Below the pieces are notes generated by a model. That model was not told where the DNA came from. It ran no database searches and saw nothing but the letters and a program-made list of their open reading frames with translations. Positions 4,703 to 59,803 of a DNA stretch of 64,000 nt are shown one piece after another. The position numbers were made by a program, and so were the translations under genes. The first letter of the stretch is position 1; each line of letters opens with the position of its first letter. The stretch lies in IMG/VR virus record IMGVR_UViG_3300011337_000669. One strand, 5' to 3'. This stretch comes from a virus (Duplodnaviria > Caudoviricetes).

Positions 4703-5008
4703 TTAAAGAATACTTAATTCGGCGACTTCTACGCCAGTTAAATCATATACAAGTTTTCTTATTATTTTCTCGACTTCTTTGTCACTGAGTAAAAATAAGT
4801 CCATAATTGAACCGAAAATATTTCCATCAATACTGAAATAATACGCGTTCATTTCAGGTGAATAGTATAACAATGCAGTTTCATGCCCATTTTTGAAAAA
4901 AATTTCCAAATCGGGGATAATCTCATCACGTTTCAACTCACCTAATTTGTCGATTAAGTATTTCGTCGCAATTGTCTGTAATCTTGATTGGTTAATTTGA
5001 TATTTCAT
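4703..5008 (-). CDS. Small MKYII-leader family protein
   Basis: N-terminus MKYQINQSRL; similar to neighbours. Confidence 0.7.
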   Translation of the reverse strand: MKYQINQSRLQTIATKYLIDKLGELKRDEIIPDLEIFFKNGHETALLYYSPEMNAYYFSIDGNIFGSIMDLFLLSDKEVEKIIRKLVYDLTGVEVAELSIL

Positions 5009-5336
5009 CTAAATCGATATGATTAAAGGTTCCAAAATAAATCTTTGTTGGTGGTTCGATGCCAAGGTAGTTAGAGAACCATTTTCTGATTGACTCTTTT
5101 TTTTGTTCATAGTCAAGTGAAAACATATCTACTAATGGATCTGAAATTTTTGCTCTGTCAAAGACTATTTTATCTTCAGGTTTTGACCACATAAAAACTA
5201 TTTCCCCATCTTTCAAGGCAAAATCCCATTCTTTATATAATTTTCCACCTGAAAACGAATCCAAATTATTATAGGTATCATTCAAAAAATATGCCCCCAA
5301 GTCAATCAGTCTCGATTCTGTAATTATTACCTTCAT
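4992..5336 (-). CDS. Small MKYII-leader family protein
   Basis: N-terminus MKVIITESRL; TATTTAT 5 nt upstream of ATG. Confidence 0.75.
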   Translation of the reverse strand: MKVIITESRLIDLGAYFLNDTYNNLDSFSGGKLYKEWDFALKDGEIVFMWSKPEDKIVFDRAKISDPLVDMFSLDYEQKKESIRKWFSNYLGIEPPTKIYFGTFNHIDLDEISN

Positions 5337-5585: not shown

Positions 5586-5640
5586 ATCTTTTTTTTTGTA
5601 AAAATAAATAATTTGTTGGTTCTTTCCAAAAAAAGAATAA

Positions 5641-7684: not shown

Positions 7685-8020
7685 TCAATAATCAGTTAAA
7701 ATAACGGAACCATCAGGAGAATACGCTTCAATCCAAAATTGATTGTTATATCGAGGAATTCCCAAATAATATAAAAAATCTATTCCTATATATTGAGATA
7801 TAAGATAATAAGGGTCGAATTCTTTCTCATACATATTTTTTTCAGTAATCGAATCATCATTCAGGTATACGGCAACTTTGTAGTTATCAAGCTTTCTGCG
7901 ACCTTTTCGACCCTCACCGACGTAAGTAATCTCAACACGATCCACCATAGGATAAACATTCTTTAACAAAGAAGAATTCGCAATCTTATTCAACGCCTTT
8001 AATTCTTGATCACTTAACAT
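7685..8020 (-). CDS. Hypothetical protein
   Basis: ORF; TATTTAT at 8025-8031. Confidence 0.65.
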   Translation of the reverse strand: MLSDQELKALNKIANSSLLKNVYPMVDRVEITYVGEGRKGRRKLDNYKVAVYLNDDSITEKNMYEKEFDPYYLISQYIGIDFLYYLGIPRYNNQFWIEAYSPDGSVILTDY

Positions 8021-8039
8021 ATCAATAAATATCTATTAT

Positions 8040-8092
8040 CCAAAAAAGGGGTTGGGGATTAGAACGACCGAAGGGAGAAATCGAATCCGAAT
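8040..8092. repeat. Dispersed intergenic repeat, copy A
   Basis: CCAAAAAAGGGGTTGGGGATTAGAACGACCGAAGGGAGAA. Confidence 0.9.
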
Positions 8093-8143
8093 ATATTTTA
8101 CATACACACAATAATGTACTACATTTGTTCCAAACAAAGAAAA

Positions 8144-8839
8144 ATGAAATACAGAAAGAAACCAGTAATCATTGACGCAGTTCAATGGACAGGAAAGAAT
8201 CGTAGAGAAATGTTTGACTTCCTAACCCAAGATACATTCAAGAATGAAACAATGGAAATAAGTGATAAACACTTTTACATTGACCGTCATAATGACGGTG
8301 GGTTGGTTATTAAAACCCTTGAAGGAGAACATCTTGCAACAATTGGGGATTACATCATCAGAGGTGTTCAAGGTGAATACTACCCTTGTAAAGAAGATAT
8401 CTTCCTTCAGACCTATGAGAAGGTCGAGGATAATCCTATAACCCTATCATTGAAAGATCTTTATGTCCACGGTAATGGTGATAAAAATAGTACTGGGGGG
8501 ACGACAATTAGTGTTCCTACTAAAGTACCTTACCATACAATTTGTAGTTGTAATGGTAGTGGTCTTTGTGGGTGTACTATCGCTAATAATATGGTAGATA
8601 ATCCTAATATTCTTAAGACTACTACTGGTAATATTACTACCGGTGTATTAAACACTGCAACATCATCATCCACATATGGATATCCAAGAACTGAACCTGA
8701 ACCAAATGGAGTCAAATGTCCAAAATGTGGTGAAGAATTAATGGACACTTACCCAAACATGATATTAACCTCCGATCCACCACAAAAAAATGTTCACTGT
8801 CCAAAGTGTGACCATAAAGGATACAGATTTATTTCATAA
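8144..8839 (+). CDS. Phage protein (MKYRKKPVIIDAVQW family) with C-terminal Cys/Zn-ribbon extension
   Basis: GDYII.GV.GE.YPCK motif; CPKC...CPKC at C-terminus; TACATTTG at 8120-8127. Confidence 0.7.
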   Translation: MKYRKKPVIIDAVQWTGKNRREMFDFLTQDTFKNETMEISDKHFYIDRHNDGGLVIKTLEGEHLATIGDYIIRGVQGEYYPCKEDIFLQTYEKVEDNPITLSLKDLYVHGNGDKNSTGGTTISVPTKVPYHTICSCNGSGLCGCTIANNMVDNPNILKTTTGNITTGVLNTATSSSTYGYPRTEPEPNGVKCPKCGEELMDTYPNMILTSDPPQKNVHCPKCDHKGYRFIS

Positions 8840-8840
8840 T

Positions 8841-8869
8841 AAAAAACCCCACCTTTAAGGGGTGGGGTT
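8841..8869. terminator. Bidirectional terminator between convergent genes
   Basis: AACCCCACC-TTTAAGG-GGTGGGGTT. Confidence 0.8.
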
Positions 8870-8872
8870 AAA

Positions 8873-9460
8873 TTATGGATTTCTTCTTTTATCCCAAATA
8901 TCTACGACATGCAAATACATATCATCAAGGTTCTCTTTTCCTGATTCAATTCTTCGAATAACCTCTTCCTTTGTATAAAGAGTATTTTTAACAATATAGT
9001 CAATCATTTCTTCATCTGTGATTCCTTCAGGTTTTTCGGGTTCAGGAATACACTCGTATTCTCTATCTGATGTGCCAATGTCTTCAATAGATAACCCTGA
9101 CTCTCCAACGATTTGTTCGAACTTAGGAACCATCATTTCATCATACCATTCAAGAATTACATGCAGAACATATGATTTCCTTAAGCTCAATGCTGTTGTA
9201 AGAACATCAACAAAACTTTTGGATATCATCAAATAACCTTGGTCAAATCGACCATCCTCAAAATAATAAATTGCGGTAATTACTTCTTTCCCATCAACAC
9301 ACCAATCCTCACGAAGATTTCCGTAATTACGTGCCTTAGGAGTGACCTTACGTTTGCCACCATCAATATATTGATTTATATATTTGACAATAGCGTTGCT
9401 AATAGACTGGCTACTCCTGTTAAGTTTTCTATATTGTTCTTCTGTTATGATGTATTTCAT
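8873..9460 (-). CDS. MKYIITEEQ-leader protein
   Basis: Leader; TATTTAT at 9465-9471. Confidence 0.75.
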   Translation of the reverse strand: MKYIITEEQYRKLNRSSQSISNAIVKYINQYIDGGKRKVTPKARNYGNLREDWCVDGKEVITAIYYFEDGRFDQGYLMISKSFVDVLTTALSLRKSYVLHVILEWYDEMMVPKFEQIVGESGLSIEDIGTSDREYECIPEPEKPEGITDEEMIDYIVKNTLYTKEEVIRRIESGKENLDDMYLHVVDIWDKRRNP

Positions 9461-9482
9461 ATATCAATAAATATCAATTATC

Positions 9483-9535
9483 CCAAAAAGGGGCTGGGGA
9501 TTAGAACGACCGAAGGGAGAACGAACGGATCCGAA
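9483..9535. repeat. Dispersed intergenic repeat, copy B
   Basis: CCAAAAAGGGGCTGGGGATTAGAACGACCGAAGGGAGAA. Confidence 0.9.
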
Positions 9536-9542
9536 CAACAAT

Positions 9543-9572
9543 AAAAAAACCCACCTTTATGGGGTGGGGATT
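9543..9572 (-). terminator. Intrinsic terminator (same family as 5641 and 6310)
   Basis: CCCACCTTTATGGGGTGGGG identical core. Confidence 0.8.
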
Positions 9573-9581
9573 AAACTTTAA

Positions 9582-10319
9582 TTAAAGATGATTTCTTAAC
9601 ATGCTAATGACATCTTCTTCATCTTTATTCCAAATGTCCTTAATTTTATTTTTATCAATCAACATCGGTCGAGCATAATATGTCATTTTTTTCACCCTAT
9701 CTCCAAATCTTTCCTCAAACTTATTCTTGGCATAATCTATCATCTCTTTTGTGAATTGTTTATACTCACGTTCGATATCATTTTCCCATCCCCATTGTTT
9801 ACCAGAAATTAAAAATATTTTTTTATCCTTTCTATCATAATACATGATAAACTTATTTCCGCCAGGAGTTCCCGTGTTGAATGTAACCTTTCCACCTTTT
9901 GATGATTTATCTTCGATTCCCAAAATACCATTACTTGATACAATCAAAAAGTCTGGAGATGCTTTTGACCCAAATGGTTCTTTAATAAAATACACCGAAT
10001 TAACATCAATATCATCGAAATAATTGGACAATGTGGTTGTTGTAAATTTCGATGGGTCGGATGAATTATAAACCGATTTCATTTTGGCAACACATGCCTT
10101 ATTTTTAAGAATAAATTGACCATCATTTATAAAATCCAAGGATATCACCTGATTGAAAATATAATCTTCACGGTCTTTCGATGTCCAGTTATTTCCGATG
10201 TTGTTCACCGTATTTTTCAAAGCATCGACCAAACCAGTCATTTTTTGACGAGCAATATTTTCATTAGGTATTGTCTGAGATAAAACATTTGATACGGAAT
10301 TTCTGATACTTTCTGCCAT
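9582..10319 (-). CDS. Putative type II restriction endonuclease (PD-(D/E)xK)
   Basis: SPDFLIV...GIEDKSSK catalytic-like motif; adjacent to an MTase. Confidence 0.65.
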   Translation of the reverse strand: MAESIRNSVSNVLSQTIPNENIARQKMTGLVDALKNTVNNIGNNWTSKDREDYIFNQVISLDFINDGQFILKNKACVAKMKSVYNSSDPSKFTTTTLSNYFDDIDVNSVYFIKEPFGSKASPDFLIVSSNGILGIEDKSSKGGKVTFNTGTPGGNKFIMYYDRKDKKIFLISGKQWGWENDIEREYKQFTKEMIDYAKNKFEERFGDRVKKMTYYARPMLIDKNKIKDIWNKDEEDVISMLRNHL

Positions 10320-10333
10320 AGACAAATAAATAG

Positions 10334-11431
10334 TTAATATTCAAAATTTAATATTTCGTTCACGGTAATATTGGTGCTATTAAAATAATCTTGGAAGGAT
10401 ATATGTCCCCCGACCATCATTTCATATAGTTCCTTAATCATTTCCTTATTTTCATGAGTAATCACCATAACGTGATTTTCAAACAAGTATGAATCATTAT
10501 TCTCAATCAAAGCAAATTTCATATTTTTTGATATTACCCGTGGCATAACAATACAATCTTTTACTTTGGATATTTCATCAGAAACAATATATTGTTTTTT
10601 TCCCGGAATCTTGCTTCTAAGTTTACCGCCAATTTTGATTTCATTATCTCCAATATTATTTGAATATAACAATATTTTTTGGGAAGAATCATCGGTCAAT
10701 TTTTCTTTCACATTATACCACAGAATATCCCCAATTTTGCATACAAAACCTTTTTCCTTTAAGGTCATGCCATTTGAAACATTTTTGGTCAATGTATAAT
10801 AATTATTTTTCAAACTTATGAATGAATGACCCTCATCGAACTTTTTTTGCAATATCAAAAGACAAACATCGATGGAGACATCTTTGAATGGAATCTGATG
10901 GATAATATCCACAACGGCATATTCATCATAGATTTTTTTCCGAATGTCATTATACCAAGGACTTGATAAAATGGTTGAAGGCAAAAGATACGCCAACACC
11001 CCACCGTCCTTTAACAACTCAAAAGATTTGTCCATAAACAAATGAACCAAATTAATTCTCCCCCTCTTTTCAAAATTAAATCGTTCACGTAATTTACTCT
11101 TTTCATCTTCATCATAATAAGAATAAACCAATTCAATATATGGAGGATTTCCAATAATAAAATCATATTGTTTATCAAAATCAGTTAAAAGAAAATCACC
11201 CAATAAACAATTGGCACCATCAATAGGTGAGAACACCTCAGGGTCAATCTCAAAACAATCAATACTTAAATCGGATTTTTTTAATTCAGACACAAAATTC
11301 CCCGAACCAAAACTTGGCTCCAAAACCCATCCCGATAAATCAAATCTTTTTCTTAATTCTTCAATAGTGAAATTACACTCATTCACGTCAGTATTAAACT
11401 GACCATACTTAGCTCTTTTTGACTTTCCCAT
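10334..11431 (-). CDS. N6-adenine DNA methyltransferase (TaqI/Eco57I-like, gamma order)
   Basis: Motif I VLEPSFGSGNF; motif IV IIGNPPY; C-terminal TRD-like region. Confidence 0.9.
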   Translation of the reverse strand: MGKSKRAKYGQFNTDVNECNFTIEELRKRFDLSGWVLEPSFGSGNFVSELKKSDLSIDCFEIDPEVFSPIDGANCLLGDFLLTDFDKQYDFIIGNPPYIELVYSYYDEDEKSKLRERFNFEKRGRINLVHLFMDKSFELLKDGGVLAYLLPSTILSSPWYNDIRKKIYDEYAVVDIIHQIPFKDVSIDVCLLILQKKFDEGHSFISLKNNYYTLTKNVSNGMTLKEKGFVCKIGDILWYNVKEKLTDDSSQKILLYSNNIGDNEIKIGGKLRSKIPGKKQYIVSDEISKVKDCIVMPRVISKNMKFALIENNDSYLFENHVMVITHENKEMIKELYEMMVGGHISFQDYFNSTNITVNEILNFEY

Positions 11432-11488
11432 ACAGTTATAAATATAATTCATTTATCGTGGAAAATAAAATAATTAGACACAAATATC

Positions 11489-11550
11489 CAAAAAAGGGGT
11501 TGGGGATTAGAACGACCGAAGGGAGAACGGACGGGGCGGTATACGAATAA
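11489..11550. repeat. Dispersed intergenic repeat, copy C
   Basis: Identical to copy A over 40 bp. Confidence 0.9.
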
Positions 11551-11573
11551 CAACAGATAAGATACGAATATCT

Positions 11574-11906
11574 TTAACCTTTATCCACAGATTTAACAGG
11601 AAGTTTTGTATTTTCCTCAAACCATTTAATAAAAATAGATTTCCAATGTTCACCAAACAAATCCGTGAGATAATCATAAGTTTCGTCAGGAAGATAAACC
11701 TTCCCCCTTTTTTTCAAAGCTTTCCATAAGTAATACATATGGTCGTAAGGATTATCCTCATCCCAAAATAAATAAAGTTCACCATAGTCGTCCTCCAATT
11801 TCTCAATATATTCTTCAGGATTCCATCCATCATAGGGAGTGAGATTAGAATTCAAAAAATCAACTATTACTTCTCCCAATCTACTACTTGTAATAATATA
11901 TTTCAT
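11574..11906 (-). CDS. MKYIITSS-leader family protein
   Basis: Start moved to MKYII; TATTTAT 6 nt upstream. Confidence 0.7.
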   Translation of the reverse strand: MKYIITSSRLGEVIVDFLNSNLTPYDGWNPEEYIEKLEDDYGELYLFWDEDNPYDHMYYLWKALKKRGKVYLPDETYDYLTDLFGEHWKSIFIKWFEENTKLPVKSVDKG

Positions 11907-11929
11907 AATTAATAAATACCCAAAACTTC

Positions 11930-11992
11930 CCAAAAAGGGGATGGGGATTCTCACGACCGAAGGGAGAACGGACGAAGCGGTATACGAATAAC
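11930..11992. repeat. Dispersed intergenic repeat, copy D
   Basis: CCAAAAAGGGGATGGGGATTCTCACGACCGAAGGGAGAA; shares GCGGTATACGAATAAC tail with copy C. Confidence 0.88.
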
Positions 11993-11994
11993 GA

Positions 11995-12735
11995 CTATAA
12001 TATCTTATCCCCCTTACTCATATTATCCTCACCCCATAATGGCTGAAGATTTGTATAATGACATAACCCGATTAACTCTTCTTCAGAAGTTGCAGAAGAT
12101 AGGGGAATTATATGGTCAATATGCCAATCACCCCTATTCTCCCAAGACATACCATCAACAAACTTTGATTCCAAATATTCCTTGAACTCATCATATGTCA
12201 TCCCAACAACCTCTTCCGTTGAAGTATCAAATTTCTTATACCCCTGTCTCCTAAATGAATTACGAATTAAATTACGAAGACGAACCTTCATAGCAAACAT
12301 CTCATCTTCATTCCATCTACGCTTCCATCTCTCATATTCACTCTTTCTCTTTTTTTGCCTCTGCATTTCTTTCCACTCATCAGTCTTATAGTATTCCATA
12401 CGTTTTTTCCACTCCAAACTTTTTTGAAGTTTCTGTTCCTTGATAAGCATCCTCTCTTCTTTCCGAACTTCCTTCAATCGATTCAGTTCATCAGTTATTT
12501 TTTTCTTCTCCTCTCTGATAATACGATTCCCCTCCACAATTTTTGACTCATATCGTTTCTTTGAGTCTTTTATCTTTTTCTTCCCCTCCTCAGTTTGTCT
12601 CCATTTTTTATGATTGCCTCTATTAATCTCTACACGACATTTTTTACAAGCACCTTTTGGTTTTCCCTTTTCATAGTAATATTCTGTTAGGGGTAAATCT
12701 AATTCACATTTACAGCATAATTTTGTCTCATCCAT
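11995..12735 (-). CDS. HNH endonuclease with N-terminal Cys motif and K/E-rich coiled coil
   Basis: WHIDHIIPLSSA...LCHYTNLQPLW.EDN..KG; TATATTTG 5 nt upstream of ATG. Confidence 0.85.
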   Translation of the reverse strand: MDETKLCCKCELDLPLTEYYYEKGKPKGACKKCRVEINRGNHKKWRQTEEGKKKIKDSKKRYESKIVEGNRIIREEKKKITDELNRLKEVRKEERMLIKEQKLQKSLEWKKRMEYYKTDEWKEMQRQKKRKSEYERWKRRWNEDEMFAMKVRLRNLIRNSFRRQGYKKFDTSTEEVVGMTYDEFKEYLESKFVDGMSWENRGDWHIDHIIPLSSATSEEELIGLCHYTNLQPLWGEDNMSKGDKIL

Positions 12736-17760: not shown

Positions 17761-17764
17761 CTAT

Positions 17765-17805
17765 CATATGCCGGGTTCGATTACCCCCGACCCCCTTTTT
17801 TATTT
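17765..17805 (+). repeat. Upstream element, copy E (related to repeat A-D)
   Basis: CATATGCCGGGTTCGATTACCCCCGACCCCCTTTTTTATTT. Confidence 0.75.
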
Positions 17806-17822
17806 TATCGATATTTATTACT

Positions 17823-18134: not shown

Positions 18135-18139
18135 TCTGT

Positions 18140-18181
18140 CATATGCCGGGGTCGATTATCCCCCAACCCCCTTTTTTATTT
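18140..18181 (+). repeat. Upstream element, copy F
   Basis: CATATGCCGGGGTCGATTATCCCCCAACCCCCTTTTTTATTT. Confidence 0.75.
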
Positions 18182-18197
18182 CCTTATATTTATCTAT

Positions 18198-44542: not shown

Positions 44543-45292
44543 TTAACAATAAGACTCTGCCAACTCCCAAAGATTAGTATTAATCTTGTTGATTGATTGG
44601 AAGTTTTTTAATTCCTTCATTGAAGTGAATCTTCCTTTTTCGGATTGGTACCTCAAACCTCCACGAACAAACTTCTCTTGAATTACGTTGAACGTAGTCC
44701 AAACTGAACTTCCTGAATCCTCATGTCTGATAGGATGAAGGAAGTCTTCAAATTTGATTTTAGGGATTGACCCTTTTTCCCAACGGATTGAGGTGGCTTT
44801 GGTGACAAAGTCAACCACTTTTTCTTCATCCAAGAAGGTAGTCTCCATCTTACCTACAGACCTTTGGATTACTGGCAGTCTTTCCGCGAATTGGTCTGTG
44901 ATTTGTTTCACTGTTCCCATGTCAAACTTCATGTGTTTAACAGAAATTTTATCCGAAAGGGATGTTGGTACTGTTAGACCATTGGAACAAACTAATCGAT
45001 GAAGTCCAGCACTTACTGAGAACGTACTCATTCCGTTGTGAGAGTTTCTGATAATCGCCTCTACCAAAGAATCACCTACCTGTGGAAATTCAACATTACG
45101 TAGTCTTAACTCATGCTGAGCGTAAGATCCTCTACCATTTTGGTTAGCGGAGAATACTTTCCATCCTTCATTCTCAAAGTTTTCGAGAATATCCATTGTC
45201 GGTACAAAAGTGTACTTGTTCGACATTTTTGGAGATGGAGAGGTGGTGAATACTGAGGGAGCGATTCTCTTGAGGTAGTCTGTCGTTATCAT
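44543..45292 (-). CDS. DUF932/DUF945-family protein
   Basis: HELRLR, IRNSHNG, GLHRLVCSNGL, WTTFNVIQE motifs; TATCTTTG upstream. Confidence 0.88.
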   Translation of the reverse strand: MITTDYLKRIAPSVFTTSPSPKMSNKYTFVPTMDILENFENEGWKVFSANQNGRGSYAQHELRLRNVEFPQVGDSLVEAIIRNSHNGMSTFSVSAGLHRLVCSNGLTVPTSLSDKISVKHMKFDMGTVKQITDQFAERLPVIQRSVGKMETTFLDEEKVVDFVTKATSIRWEKGSIPKIKFEDFLHPIRHEDSGSSVWTTFNVIQEKFVRGGLRYQSEKGRFTSMKELKNFQSINKINTNLWELAESYC

Positions 45293-58203: not shown

Positions 58204-58779
58204 TTAGTTATTGCTGTAGTTTTGAAGTAGAGTTAATTCGTGTTTGGTAAGGGAGTCCATTCCTAAGACATTTATCTTATCCAAGATGGTATCCAAAGTT
58301 GTTTTAGTTGCAGGAGTACCCATCCATTGTGAAATCTTAGCCTTAATCTCTGAATGCAAGTCGTTTGGAAGATTTATTTCGTTTGAAAAACTTATGTCAA
58401 TATCGTCATCCTCATCATAGTCACTATATAAATCAGTATTCTCAACAACACCTTTCATGTCGATTGAATAGTCATTATTCTGACCAGGATTATCTAAATC
58501 AAATAAATGTCCAGATCTTTCGTAAGGGACGTGAACTGACACTTTGTCAGATACTTCTGTCAAAATTAGTATTTCACTATCAACATGGATAAGCCCAATG
58601 ATATATTCAAAGATTTCGTCTTTAGGAACCTCTGTTGCGAAGTGCATCATTATAATTCCTCCTCCGAATTGATACTTCATGTTTGGTGAATCCACCAATG
58701 GCGCGACTGCCATTACCAGTTGATTACAACTTTCGTCTGTAATAAAATTACCAATAACTGTGGCTAAGTAGTTTTTCAT
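58204..58779 (-). CDS. Hypothetical protein
   Basis: C-terminal LD.ILDKI...G..SLT..E...L; TATCTTTG upstream. Confidence 0.65.
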   Translation of the reverse strand: MKNYLATVIGNFITDESCNQLVMAVAPLVDSPNMKYQFGGGIIMMHFATEVPKDEIFEYIIGLIHVDSEILILTEVSDKVSVHVPYERSGHLFDLDNPGQNNDYSIDMKGVVENTDLYSDYDEDDDIDISFSNEINLPNDLHSEIKAKISQWMGTPATKTTLDTILDKINVLGMDSLTKHELTLLQNYSNN

Positions 58780-58795
58780 ATTTTACGTTTAATTT

Positions 58796-59296
58796 TTACA
58801 AAGATACTAATTTTCTATTACTCTCAAAATAAACTCTTCCTTTTGTTCCTGAATGTTGCTCGTACCACTTACCCTCTTTATCTTTCCAAACATATGGATT
58901 GGTCGGGTCAACACTCCACCTATACTGAGAATAGAAGTCGAAGTCTTTTTTTAATAGATTGGATTTGTGTGAGTCATGAAACTTTTGGTTACCAAACCAA
59001 TCAGGATAAGTCACCTCCTCATCGATATCCTCCTTATCCATTGTGTTCTTGAATCCACGACTAACCCACTCATCAATACTCGCATTCAAGTACATCTTAA
59101 GAAGTGGTACATGGTTTCTCCACATAACAGAGCATGGATGGTTAATCCACCCTTTGTAGGGGGTACCATCCAACTTTAATCTGCCAGTGATTGCACTAAT
59201 AATTTGATAGGTTTCAACTCGTTGTTTGCCAAGTCTCTTGTTATCAAGGACTCTGAGTGATTCGATTAAATCTGCGTATGGTAGAAATGTTTGCAT
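58796..59296 (-). CDS. Pyrimidine-dimer DNA glycosylase (DenV-like/MSMEG_6728 family)
   Basis: MQTFLPY..LD.KRLGKQRVE..QI; NHP...MW; H.SH.SNLL.KD. Confidence 0.88.
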   Translation of the reverse strand: MQTFLPYADLIESLRVLDNKRLGKQRVETYQIISAITGRLKLDGTPYKGWINHPCSVMWRNHVPLLKMYLNASIDEWVSRGFKNTMDKEDIDEEVTYPDWFGNQKFHDSHKSNLLKKDFDFYSQYRWSVDPTNPYVWKDKEGKWYEQHSGTKGRVYFESNRKLVSL

Positions 59297-59323: not shown

Positions 59324-59803
59324 TTAGCTCAACATTAAATTCGATAATCCATCTATTTTAATTTTACAAGCCAAATAACTCTCGTAATTCAAATATGTTG
59401 GATTTTGTTTTGCAACAACTGTAACCTTACTATGCTCATGTTTCGATAACTTAACAGTAGAGCAATACTTTTTCAAAATTTGGATGAACTTACTCAATTC
59501 CATATTCTCATCCCTATCCAACTCAGAAAAGATAAATTTCATTGCCTTACTTCTTTGAATGAAGTGGTCATCAACCAACTCAGATAACTCAATATTTTTT
59601 GCGGACTCAGACATTAACCCAGTCTTGAAAAATTTACAGTTAGTTACATCCCAAATCGGATTTCTGTTTCTAACAAAAAACTGTCTTAACTTAGTTTCAT
59701 CACCTTTAATACTTCTATAACGTATCAGTAATACCTTGAAATCTTCCAAAGTTTCCTCGATTTTGAATAATTGATTATGATTTAGATCTCCTTTCATAAA
59801 CAC
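59324..59803 (-). CDS. Hypothetical protein, possibly HNH-like
   Basis: VDDH...TVKLSKHEH; TATCTTTG 5 nt upstream. Confidence 0.55.
   Translation of the reverse strand: MFMKGDLNHNQLFKIEETLEDFKVLLIRYRSIKGDETKLRQFFVRNRNPIWDVTNCKFFKTGLMSESAKNIELSELVDDHFIQRSKAMKFIFSELDRDENMELSKFIQILKKYCSTVKLSKHEHSKVTVVAKQNPTYLNYESYLACKIKIDGLSNLMLS

Follow-up and report, generated by a model that had tools for sequence, protein, structure and literature searches.

A repeat confined to one island marks the joints of exchanged gene units in a T4-like giant phage and probably acts as a portable promoter module

In a 64,000-nt stretch of viral DNA (IMG/VR record IMGVR_UViG_3300011337_000669; Duplodnaviria, Caudoviricetes), hereafter the window, an intergenic repeat occurs in four direct copies between positions 8034 and 11995, and comparison of assembled sequences from related phages identifies these copies as the joints where gene units are exchanged. 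The repeat is probably a portable promoter module, similar to the promoter/stem-loop cassettes (PeSLs) of T4-type phages and restricted to a single locus, that serves as the homology for recombination.

The first-pass annotation of the window had placed the four copies at 8040, 9483, 11489 and 11930 and had described A (8040–8079) and C (11489–11528) as identical over 40 bp, and we found both statements to be correct. A repeat search of the window extended the alignable repeat to ~73 nt, longer than the 40 bp first reported:

8034–8106, minus strand: copy A (core 8040–8079), upstream of the gene at 7685–8020; nhmmer E 1.4e-16
9476–9548, minus strand: copy B (core 9483–9521), directly downstream of the terminator at 9550–9568 and upstream of the gene at 8873–9460
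11482–11554, minus strand: copy C (core 11489–11528), upstream of the methyltransferase gene; right-hand boundary of a mobile 1,991-nt block
11923–11995, minus strand: copy D (core 11930–11968), upstream of the gene at 11574–11906; abuts the stop of the gene at 11995–12735

The 16-mer ACGACCGAAGGGAGAA is present four times in the window, where 0.32 occurrences would be expected, and 100 shuffles never gave as many. As had been noted, the copies lie upstream of minus-strand genes, with ATGs at 8020, 9460, 11431 and 11906 each 20–70 nt away, and because all neighbouring genes except one are on the minus strand the reverse complement gives the best reading of the element.

Databases were searched with an exact 26-nt pattern that joins two conserved blocks of the element. 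The pattern was found at six loci in four IMG/VR contigs of 88–326 kb and in 80 metagenome contigs, mostly from lakes and a few of them estuarine or marine, and the total came to 130 copies in 101 distinct sequence contexts. Zero copies were present in 185,579 bacterial and archaeal genomes, so an origin in a host or prophage is not supported, and a blastn search of INPHARED returned no related cultured phage. The number of copies within 150 nt of a locus end (26 of 130) is an enrichment too weak to count.

Gene maps of the window and four relatives share conserved anchors on both sides of the repeats, with gene families F9-F1-F1-F10...F3-terminator-F2 on one side and F8-F4-F12-F5-F6-F13 on the other. 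Between these anchors, where the repeats sit, gene content differs in every one of the five phages, and the genes between repeats are swapped between relatives as units instead of being conserved and syntenic. This bears on the simplest explanation, that the repeat is just a promoter or terminator that was duplicated locally and plays no role in gene turnover, which would suit its position upstream of genes and the terminators nearby. We consider this hardly credible, as relatives do not share synteny for the genes between copies, and homology between genomes breaks off where the element lies.

To look at the joints across all copies, sequences 50–330 nt upstream and 45–325 nt downstream were clustered; the 51 clusters on the upstream side and the 57 on the downstream side occur in 69 combinations. 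A single upstream context leads into 11 different downstream genes, a single downstream gene is found with seven upstream contexts, and the combinations contain two "four-gamete" squares. Twenty combinations recur in at least two independent datasets (46 datasets in all), among them upstream cluster U1 with downstream clusters D3, D5 and D11 and U2 with D4, D7 and D20, and with junctions replicated across datasets in this way assembly chimeras cannot explain the pattern.

Alignments of the gene units themselves agree with the gene maps, flank clusters and replicated combinations that the repeats mark the boundaries of swapped units. The window sequence from 9540 to 11527 runs from a terminator through the gene for a 245-aa protein and a DNA methylase gene and stops where block 1 of copy C ends. 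Over 1,991 nt it shares 91% identity with two other loci (L040 and L095) that have different flanks, and the same block makes up a stand-alone 2,024-nt contig in one run from another study. The block holding the gene at 8873–9460 (8830/8838 to 9462/9481) is found again in more than 15 contigs, and the block 7668/7682–8022/8032, with the gene at 7685–8020, has homologues in other contexts elsewhere. Contigs of four other runs from four studies stop or switch at 8051, 9540–9566 and 11499–11529. Most run joints had sides shorter than 30 nt at 90% likeness and were treated as weak, regions lacking cover in those runs were not used as evidence, and a joint going back from 11909 to 9485 is explained by the near-identical copies.

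One run (X11), in which 78% of the region's words were present, had the sequence 9461–9561, including copy B, replaced by 273 other letters; the replacement sits between the gene at 8873–9460 and the terminator at 9561.

The repeat is also confined within the genome. The complete 326-kb relative has six copies plus one variant in one hypervariable island, the six in a single orientation and spanning no more than 7 kb, with zero reverse matches, and the partial relatives have three copies each spanning 1.1–2.6 kb. The right half of the element (C-tract, gap, C-tract and T-run) occurs elsewhere in the 326 kb only once, at the syntenic site of the variant. Exchange would be confined to the island because the module exists only there.

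In gene orientation, the element begins with a variable left arm of the form ATTCG-(GTATAC / GGATCC / ...)-CCGC...GTCCG and continues with three blocks whose invariance is partly by construction, the collection pattern having demanded an exact match of all three. Block 1 is the 16-mer TTCTCCCTTCGGTCGT, block 2 is AATCCCC, and block 3 is CCCC followed by six or seven T. The 3-nt gap between blocks 1 and 2 is free (TCT in 46 of 88 copies and GGG in 19, plus ten other triplets), and the 2 nt between blocks 2 and 3 vary freely as well. The motif TATTTAT begins 10–11 nt past block 3, at an offset from block 2 of 22–24 in 58 of the 88 copies and of 15 in ten. Its spacing to the ATG is mostly 4–6 nt, with 15–25 nt in other copies, and since the spacing between element and TATTTAT is fixed while the distance from TATTTAT to the ATG varies, the motif is tied to the element and not only to the start codon.

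A profile search found few degenerate copies in the longer loci. They include a variant at 12129–12180 of locus L024 (equivalent to L025 9214–9265) that has no 16-mer, apparently through deletion between two TTCT repeats, and a left half-copy at 5061–5088 of L040, which is separated by 174 nt from the methylase block's boundary. Comeau et al. 2014 (PMC4122927) described "degraded PeSLs" that these two copies resemble. The left arm, for example at 9528–9540 and 11532–11548 of the window and at many other loci, usually contains a 6–8-bp palindrome after ATT(C), and in the variants CGTATACG, CGGATCCG and TTCGAA the symmetry is kept while the sequence changes; this palindrome could be the binding site of a dimer or could be due to chance. 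The right half, AATCCCC-AA-CCCC-T6 (window 8043–8060 and equivalents), looks on the gene strand like the 5′ arm of the phage's standard terminator (AATCCCCACCCC...) followed at once by its T-run, with loop and 3′ arm seemingly lost, when set against the terminators at 5640, 6311, 8841 and 9543.

How linkage decays around the element indicates where the exchanges take place. Pairs of copies that share only their upstream context keep a per-column identity of ~0.9 to the start of the left arm and then drop to background, and pairs that share only their downstream context rise above background only past TATTTAT. Linkage is therefore lost at both edges, which points to exchange on both sides of the core with no one fixed point. 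At the free 3-nt gap, identity is 31% in same-upstream pairs, 38% in same-downstream pairs and 32% in unrelated pairs versus 74% in pairs sharing both flanks, meaning that the free positions are stable within a lineage and yet have been separated from both flanks by exchange. Such a pattern fits homologous recombination or gene conversion over the shared 60–85 nt and not a site-specific crossover.

The first-pass annotation had proposed an integron-like mechanism, in which promoter-associated attachment sites are acted on by a dedicated site-specific recombinase and cassettes are excised as circles. The arrangement does recall an integron, with one-direction arrays of unrelated units of one or two genes, bracketed and separated by a direct repeat. 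However, no tyrosine or serine recombinase (PF00589 Phage_integrase, PF00239 Resolvase) was found in the complete 326-kb relative or three partial relatives, with positive controls, and neither strand of the element contains an attC-like hairpin or imperfect palindrome. Each unit carries its own element and TATTTAT, several also a terminator, so that unlike integron cassettes every unit has its own promoter module, and the crossovers are spread over the repeat instead of falling at a single point. The proposal is not borne out by these results, and we regard an integron-like system as very improbable.

The mechanism that we consider most likely is that the phage's own T4-type homologous recombination would act on the shared 60–85 nt. 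Crossovers would then fall at both edges of the module, a promoter–gene(s)–terminator unit between two copies would be deleted, inserted or replaced, and exchange would stay in the island, as has been proposed for the internal-protein loci of T-even phages. An unlikely alternative is that a sequence-specific phage protein, such as a homing-type nuclease or other DNA-binding factor, recognises the blocks and starts recombination by making breaks at each copy, with expression being secondary. The ~27 block positions with free gaps of fixed length are reminiscent of homing-endonuclease sites, which are long and asymmetric, and the element is found in a single island. Next to copy D is an endonuclease VII-like gene, other HNH-type nuclease genes are present in the window, and a sequence-specific protein initiating targeted recombination in T4 was proposed by Mosig, as quoted in PMC2839356. 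On the other hand, no nuclease gene is consistently beside the arrays in relatives, linkage decays at both edges and not around one cut site, and a promoter, unlike a cleavage site, accounts for the fixed spacing to TATTTAT.

That brings us to why we read the element as a promoter module. Motifs equivalent to the one next to copy A precede each gene of the region that follows a repeat, and also the gene at 9582–10319:

8025–8031, minus strand: TATTTAT, –10-like motif, 4 nt before ATG 8020
9467–9473, minus strand: equivalent TATTTAT
10326–10332, minus strand: equivalent TATTTAT of the gene at 9582–10319
11438–11444, minus strand: equivalent TATTTAT of the methylase gene
11912–11918, minus strand: equivalent TATTTAT

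In the window, 22 of 61 occurrences of TATTTAT have an ATG 4–6 nt later, and the sequences upstream of those 22 are diverse and often end in a terminator T-run directly before the motif. The methylase unit (11431–11500) has two versions of the motif, a degenerate TATTTGT whose offset from the repeat is the usual short one of 15 and, 6 nt ahead of ATG 11431, a perfect TATTTAT; L040 and L094 have the same layout. In the complete relative, TATTTAT also precedes the portal and prohead-protease genes along with other genes of the structural region, which makes the late-type promoter suggested earlier plausible. From its position, TATTTAT would be a phage-specific –10-like element, plausibly of the late class, and its spacing to the ATG implies messages that would be leaderless or have very short leaders. 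In front of other genes a host-type TAnnTTTG is found at the same distance from the ATG. No Shine-Dalgarno sequence precedes any gene examined in the window, and a sigma-70 promoter scan gave the same count as shuffles, with no match in the elements on the gene strand.

Terminators accompany part of the copies. A terminator tail lies no more than 75 nt upstream of the element in 27 of 115 copies (~23%), and in the window this applies to copy B only; a canonical stem-loop is absent from the remaining copies:

8845–8869, minus strand: intrinsic terminator that ends the unit of the gene at 8873–9460 and also closes the plus-strand gene at 8114–8839
9550–9568, minus strand: intrinsic terminator after the gene at 9582–10319, at the left-hand boundary (9540) of the mobile methylase block

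The related elements reported near 17765 and 18140 are real and are syntenic in three relatives:

17761–17822, plus strand: variant element, TCGATTA-C5-GA-C5-T6, then 10 nt and TATTTAT, before a gene with the leader MKYIISE
18136–18197, plus strand: second variant copy

The variant keeps the geometry of C-tract, T-run and TATTTAT at a syntenic position where no shuffling is seen, and its retention there argues that the right half together with TATTTAT functions as an expression signal even without shuffling. Putting the anatomy and the position of the element together, we infer that the blocks form the upstream half of a promoter dependent on a phage factor, serving small accessory genes in one hyperplastic island.

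It could also be asked whether the element acts as RNA, with transcription starting further upstream; it might then be a conserved 5′ leader rich in C and U, be a site of processing or be targeted by an RNA acting in trans. A near-match to the –7 motif of Bacteroidota (TTTATTTG) is found just upstream in the copies that follow a terminator, though many copies have no promoter-like sequence upstream. No conserved secondary structure was detected among 40 diverse copies, for which RNAalifold gave an energy of ~0 and not one compensatory pair, and single folds of both strands had z-scores of –0.25 to +1.6. The CC-GAA-GG mini-hairpin that had been described for each copy is present as a sequence and has no support from either type of folding. 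An Rfam scan of 5–21 kb at E ≤ 1 gave three sub-threshold chance matches, none of them on the repeat, there is no antisense copy in the complete relative, and the distance that is held constant is the one between element and TATTTAT and not the one to the ATG. Taken together these results make an RNA role a long shot. Separately, a giant-loop terminator in which an upstream GGGGAT pairs with ATCCCC was considered and rejected, as it fits a minority of copies only and folds no better than shuffles.

We return to the portable promoter module, against which several points have to be weighed. The start site, the timing and the factor reading the element are all inferred, and the element corresponds neither to the consensus for sigma-70 nor to the TTTG/TAnnTTTG pattern of Bacteroidota. 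Six copies per genome are too few for a general promoter class, and invariant blocks beside free positions point to a sequence-specific reader that could be something other than RNA polymerase, although exact blocks were demanded by the collection pattern itself. The composite of terminator plus promoter that defines PeSLs is not universal here (27 of 115 copies). In addition, all of the evidence for shuffling comes from assembled contigs, in which neither circles nor intermediates of recombination were seen, and the run joints have short sides.

PeSLs are composites of a terminator, a sigma-70-type promoter and a Shine-Dalgarno module that flank ORFans in the hyperplastic regions of T4-type phages, and they recombine with one another and release mini-circles (PMC2839356; PMC4122927). 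PeSL/PmSL elements (promoter-early or promoter-middle stem-loop cassettes, the middle type with a Mot box) are known from RB49/phi1, T4/PST and KVP40/nt-1, of which nt-1 also has middle-promoter versions (Arbiol et al. 2010, PMC2839356; Comeau et al. 2014, PMC4122927). The comparison with PeSLs made in the earlier annotation is apt, given that the lineage studied here is itself T4-like, with a gp23-type major capsid protein, a portal and a prohead (head-maturation) protease. In both cases a regulatory module is repeated between genes in front of small ORFans, breakpoints of insertion, deletion and replacement between relatives fall in the modules, degraded half-copies are present and there is no dedicated recombinase. 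Unlike PeSLs, the promoter in our case is not sigma-70-like, has no Shine-Dalgarno sequence and matches no host consensus, its –10 element being the phage's own TATTTAT beside the ATG; the conserved part is longer, with ~45 nt of blocks plus the left arm and free gaps in between; a stem-loop terminator is found with only about a quarter of copies; and the copies are gathered in one island (six in 326 kb), whereas PeSLs are spread over many hyperplastic regions. The findings add an uncultured freshwater clade of ~300-kb phages to the cultured T4-like phages of enterobacteria and Vibrio that have PeSL-type shuffling, and draw on natural populations for the evidence, with 46 datasets and junctions replicated between them. 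The shared module in this clade is a long, phage-specific and locus-restricted signal, not a promoter of host type, and TATTTAT with its upstream blocks provides candidate promoter elements for a phage group that has no genetic system.

The genes carried between and next to the copies in the window are as follows:

7685–8020, minus strand: 111-aa ORFan
8114–8839, plus strand: protein with a phrog_419 domain and a C-terminal CxxC zinc ribbon; opposite-strand cargo
8873–9460, minus strand: 195-aa protein with the leader MKYIITE, family F11
9582–10319, minus strand: 245-aa protein, co-mobile with the methylase; putative restriction enzyme
10334–11431, minus strand: N6-adenine DNA methyltransferase (Eco57I / N6_Mtase type)
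11574–11906, minus strand: 110-aa protein with the leader MKYIIT
11995–12735, minus strand: endonuclease VII-like protein (phrog_1035), upstream neighbour of copy D

The methylase likely starts at ATG 11431, 6 nt after TATTTAT, and the longest open reading frame, with its start at 11452, probably over-extends the gene. The methylase and its neighbour had been called a complete restriction-modification pair; the methyltransferase half of this stands, with a match to the Eco57I/N6_Mtase type, but the 245-aa protein matches no nuclease family or solved structure in searches of Pfam, PHROGs, NCBIfam and PDB sequences. The rest of the cargo is as it had been described, a zinc-ribbon gene with a leader gene in one unit and a leader gene in another, and the nuclease gene abutting copy D matches the PHROG "endonuclease VII" (phrog_1035).

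Over all loci, the first gene after the element belongs to at least 31 families that are unrelated at E<1e-5, most of which have no match in Pfam or PHROGs. Those identified are the N6-adenine methylase of the window, an S-adenosylmethionine (SAM) methyltransferase, and SET-domain, peptidoglycan-binding-domain and DUF6576 proteins. The exact 26-nt pattern can be used as a handle for pulling the accessory-gene pool of the clade from metagenomes, the at least 31 families recovered through the element including the methylase gene pair. In other phages, SET-domain, class I SAM methyltransferase and peptidoglycan-binding-domain proteins were seen as cargo at L057 463–855, L083 284–784 and L092 1645–2463.

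Many cargo proteins share a short N-terminal leader. Of 31 cargo families, 20 have the motif [ILV]-x-E among their 12 N-terminal residues, versus 20 of 104 other genes of these phages, and a stricter leader motif is present in 10 of 31 versus 5 of 104 (p = 1.5e-4). Typical leaders are MKYIITE, MRIIISE and MKKVxRLTE. Across loci L022–L105, the leaders MKYIITE(S)Q, MKKVxRLTE and MNLQENIxRIxE are common to small proteins that are otherwise unrelated, and leader genes of the window include those at 4992, 7354, 8873, 11574, 17823, 18198 and 18458. With a T4-type prohead protease encoded by the phage, the leader proteins may be targeted to the capsid and processed.

In behaviour, the nearest parallel is with the internal-protein (IP) loci of T-even phages, which have locus-specific repeated elements according to the description of Repoila et al. 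1994 given in PMC2839356. Going by that description, both systems have repeats specific to a locus that are thought to confine shuffling, and the IP cargo consists of unrelated small proteins sharing an N-terminal targeting leader, much like the 20 of 31 families with [ILV]-x-E in our set. The IP elements differ in having no sequence relationship with the element studied here, and the cargo of the island differs in also including leaderless enzymes (DNA methylase, SET domain and SAM methyltransferase). It is conceivable, if doubtful, that the island is the counterpart of the IP loci in a T4-like giant phage infecting Bacteroidota, an exchange site for late, leader-tagged proteins that are packaged and injected, where the ~45-bp tripartite element is read by a specific phage factor, be it a sigma factor, an activator or a nuclease, which sets the time of expression and also directs recombination. 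If this were true, phages in a lake would be trading anti-host effectors at one addressable locus.

The phages of this lineage are uncultured, T4-like and giant, with genomes of ~300 kb. In addition to the head genes mentioned above it encodes a gp46-like SbcC nuclease and an open reading frame with a weak RecA/UvsX-like match. A 275-aa protein of the sigma-70 family is kept in the clade (region 2, E ~1e-16; G004 281697–281903, G003 84558–84755 and G001 82824–83030), and a second, weak match to region 2 was seen near 126.9 kb of G004 in a protein of 251 aa. Both of these sigma-like proteins are candidates for reading TATTTAT or the promoters of the repeat.

The host is probably a member of the Bacteroidota, as judged from the Bacteroidota –7 motif TAnnTTTG found a few bases before the ATG in some genes together with the lack of Shine-Dalgarno sequences. 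In the window, –7 motifs (TATCTTTG and similar) stand 3–5 nt before the ATG at the minus-strand starts of 58796–59296, 59324–59797, 58204–58779 and 44543–45292. Host-type –7 motifs so near the ATG and the lack of Shine-Dalgarno sequences suggest that leaderless or near-leaderless messages may be widespread in this phage. The two signals are also zoned along the window, with host-type –7 motifs dominating 42–64 kb and TATTTAT dominating 3–40 kb.

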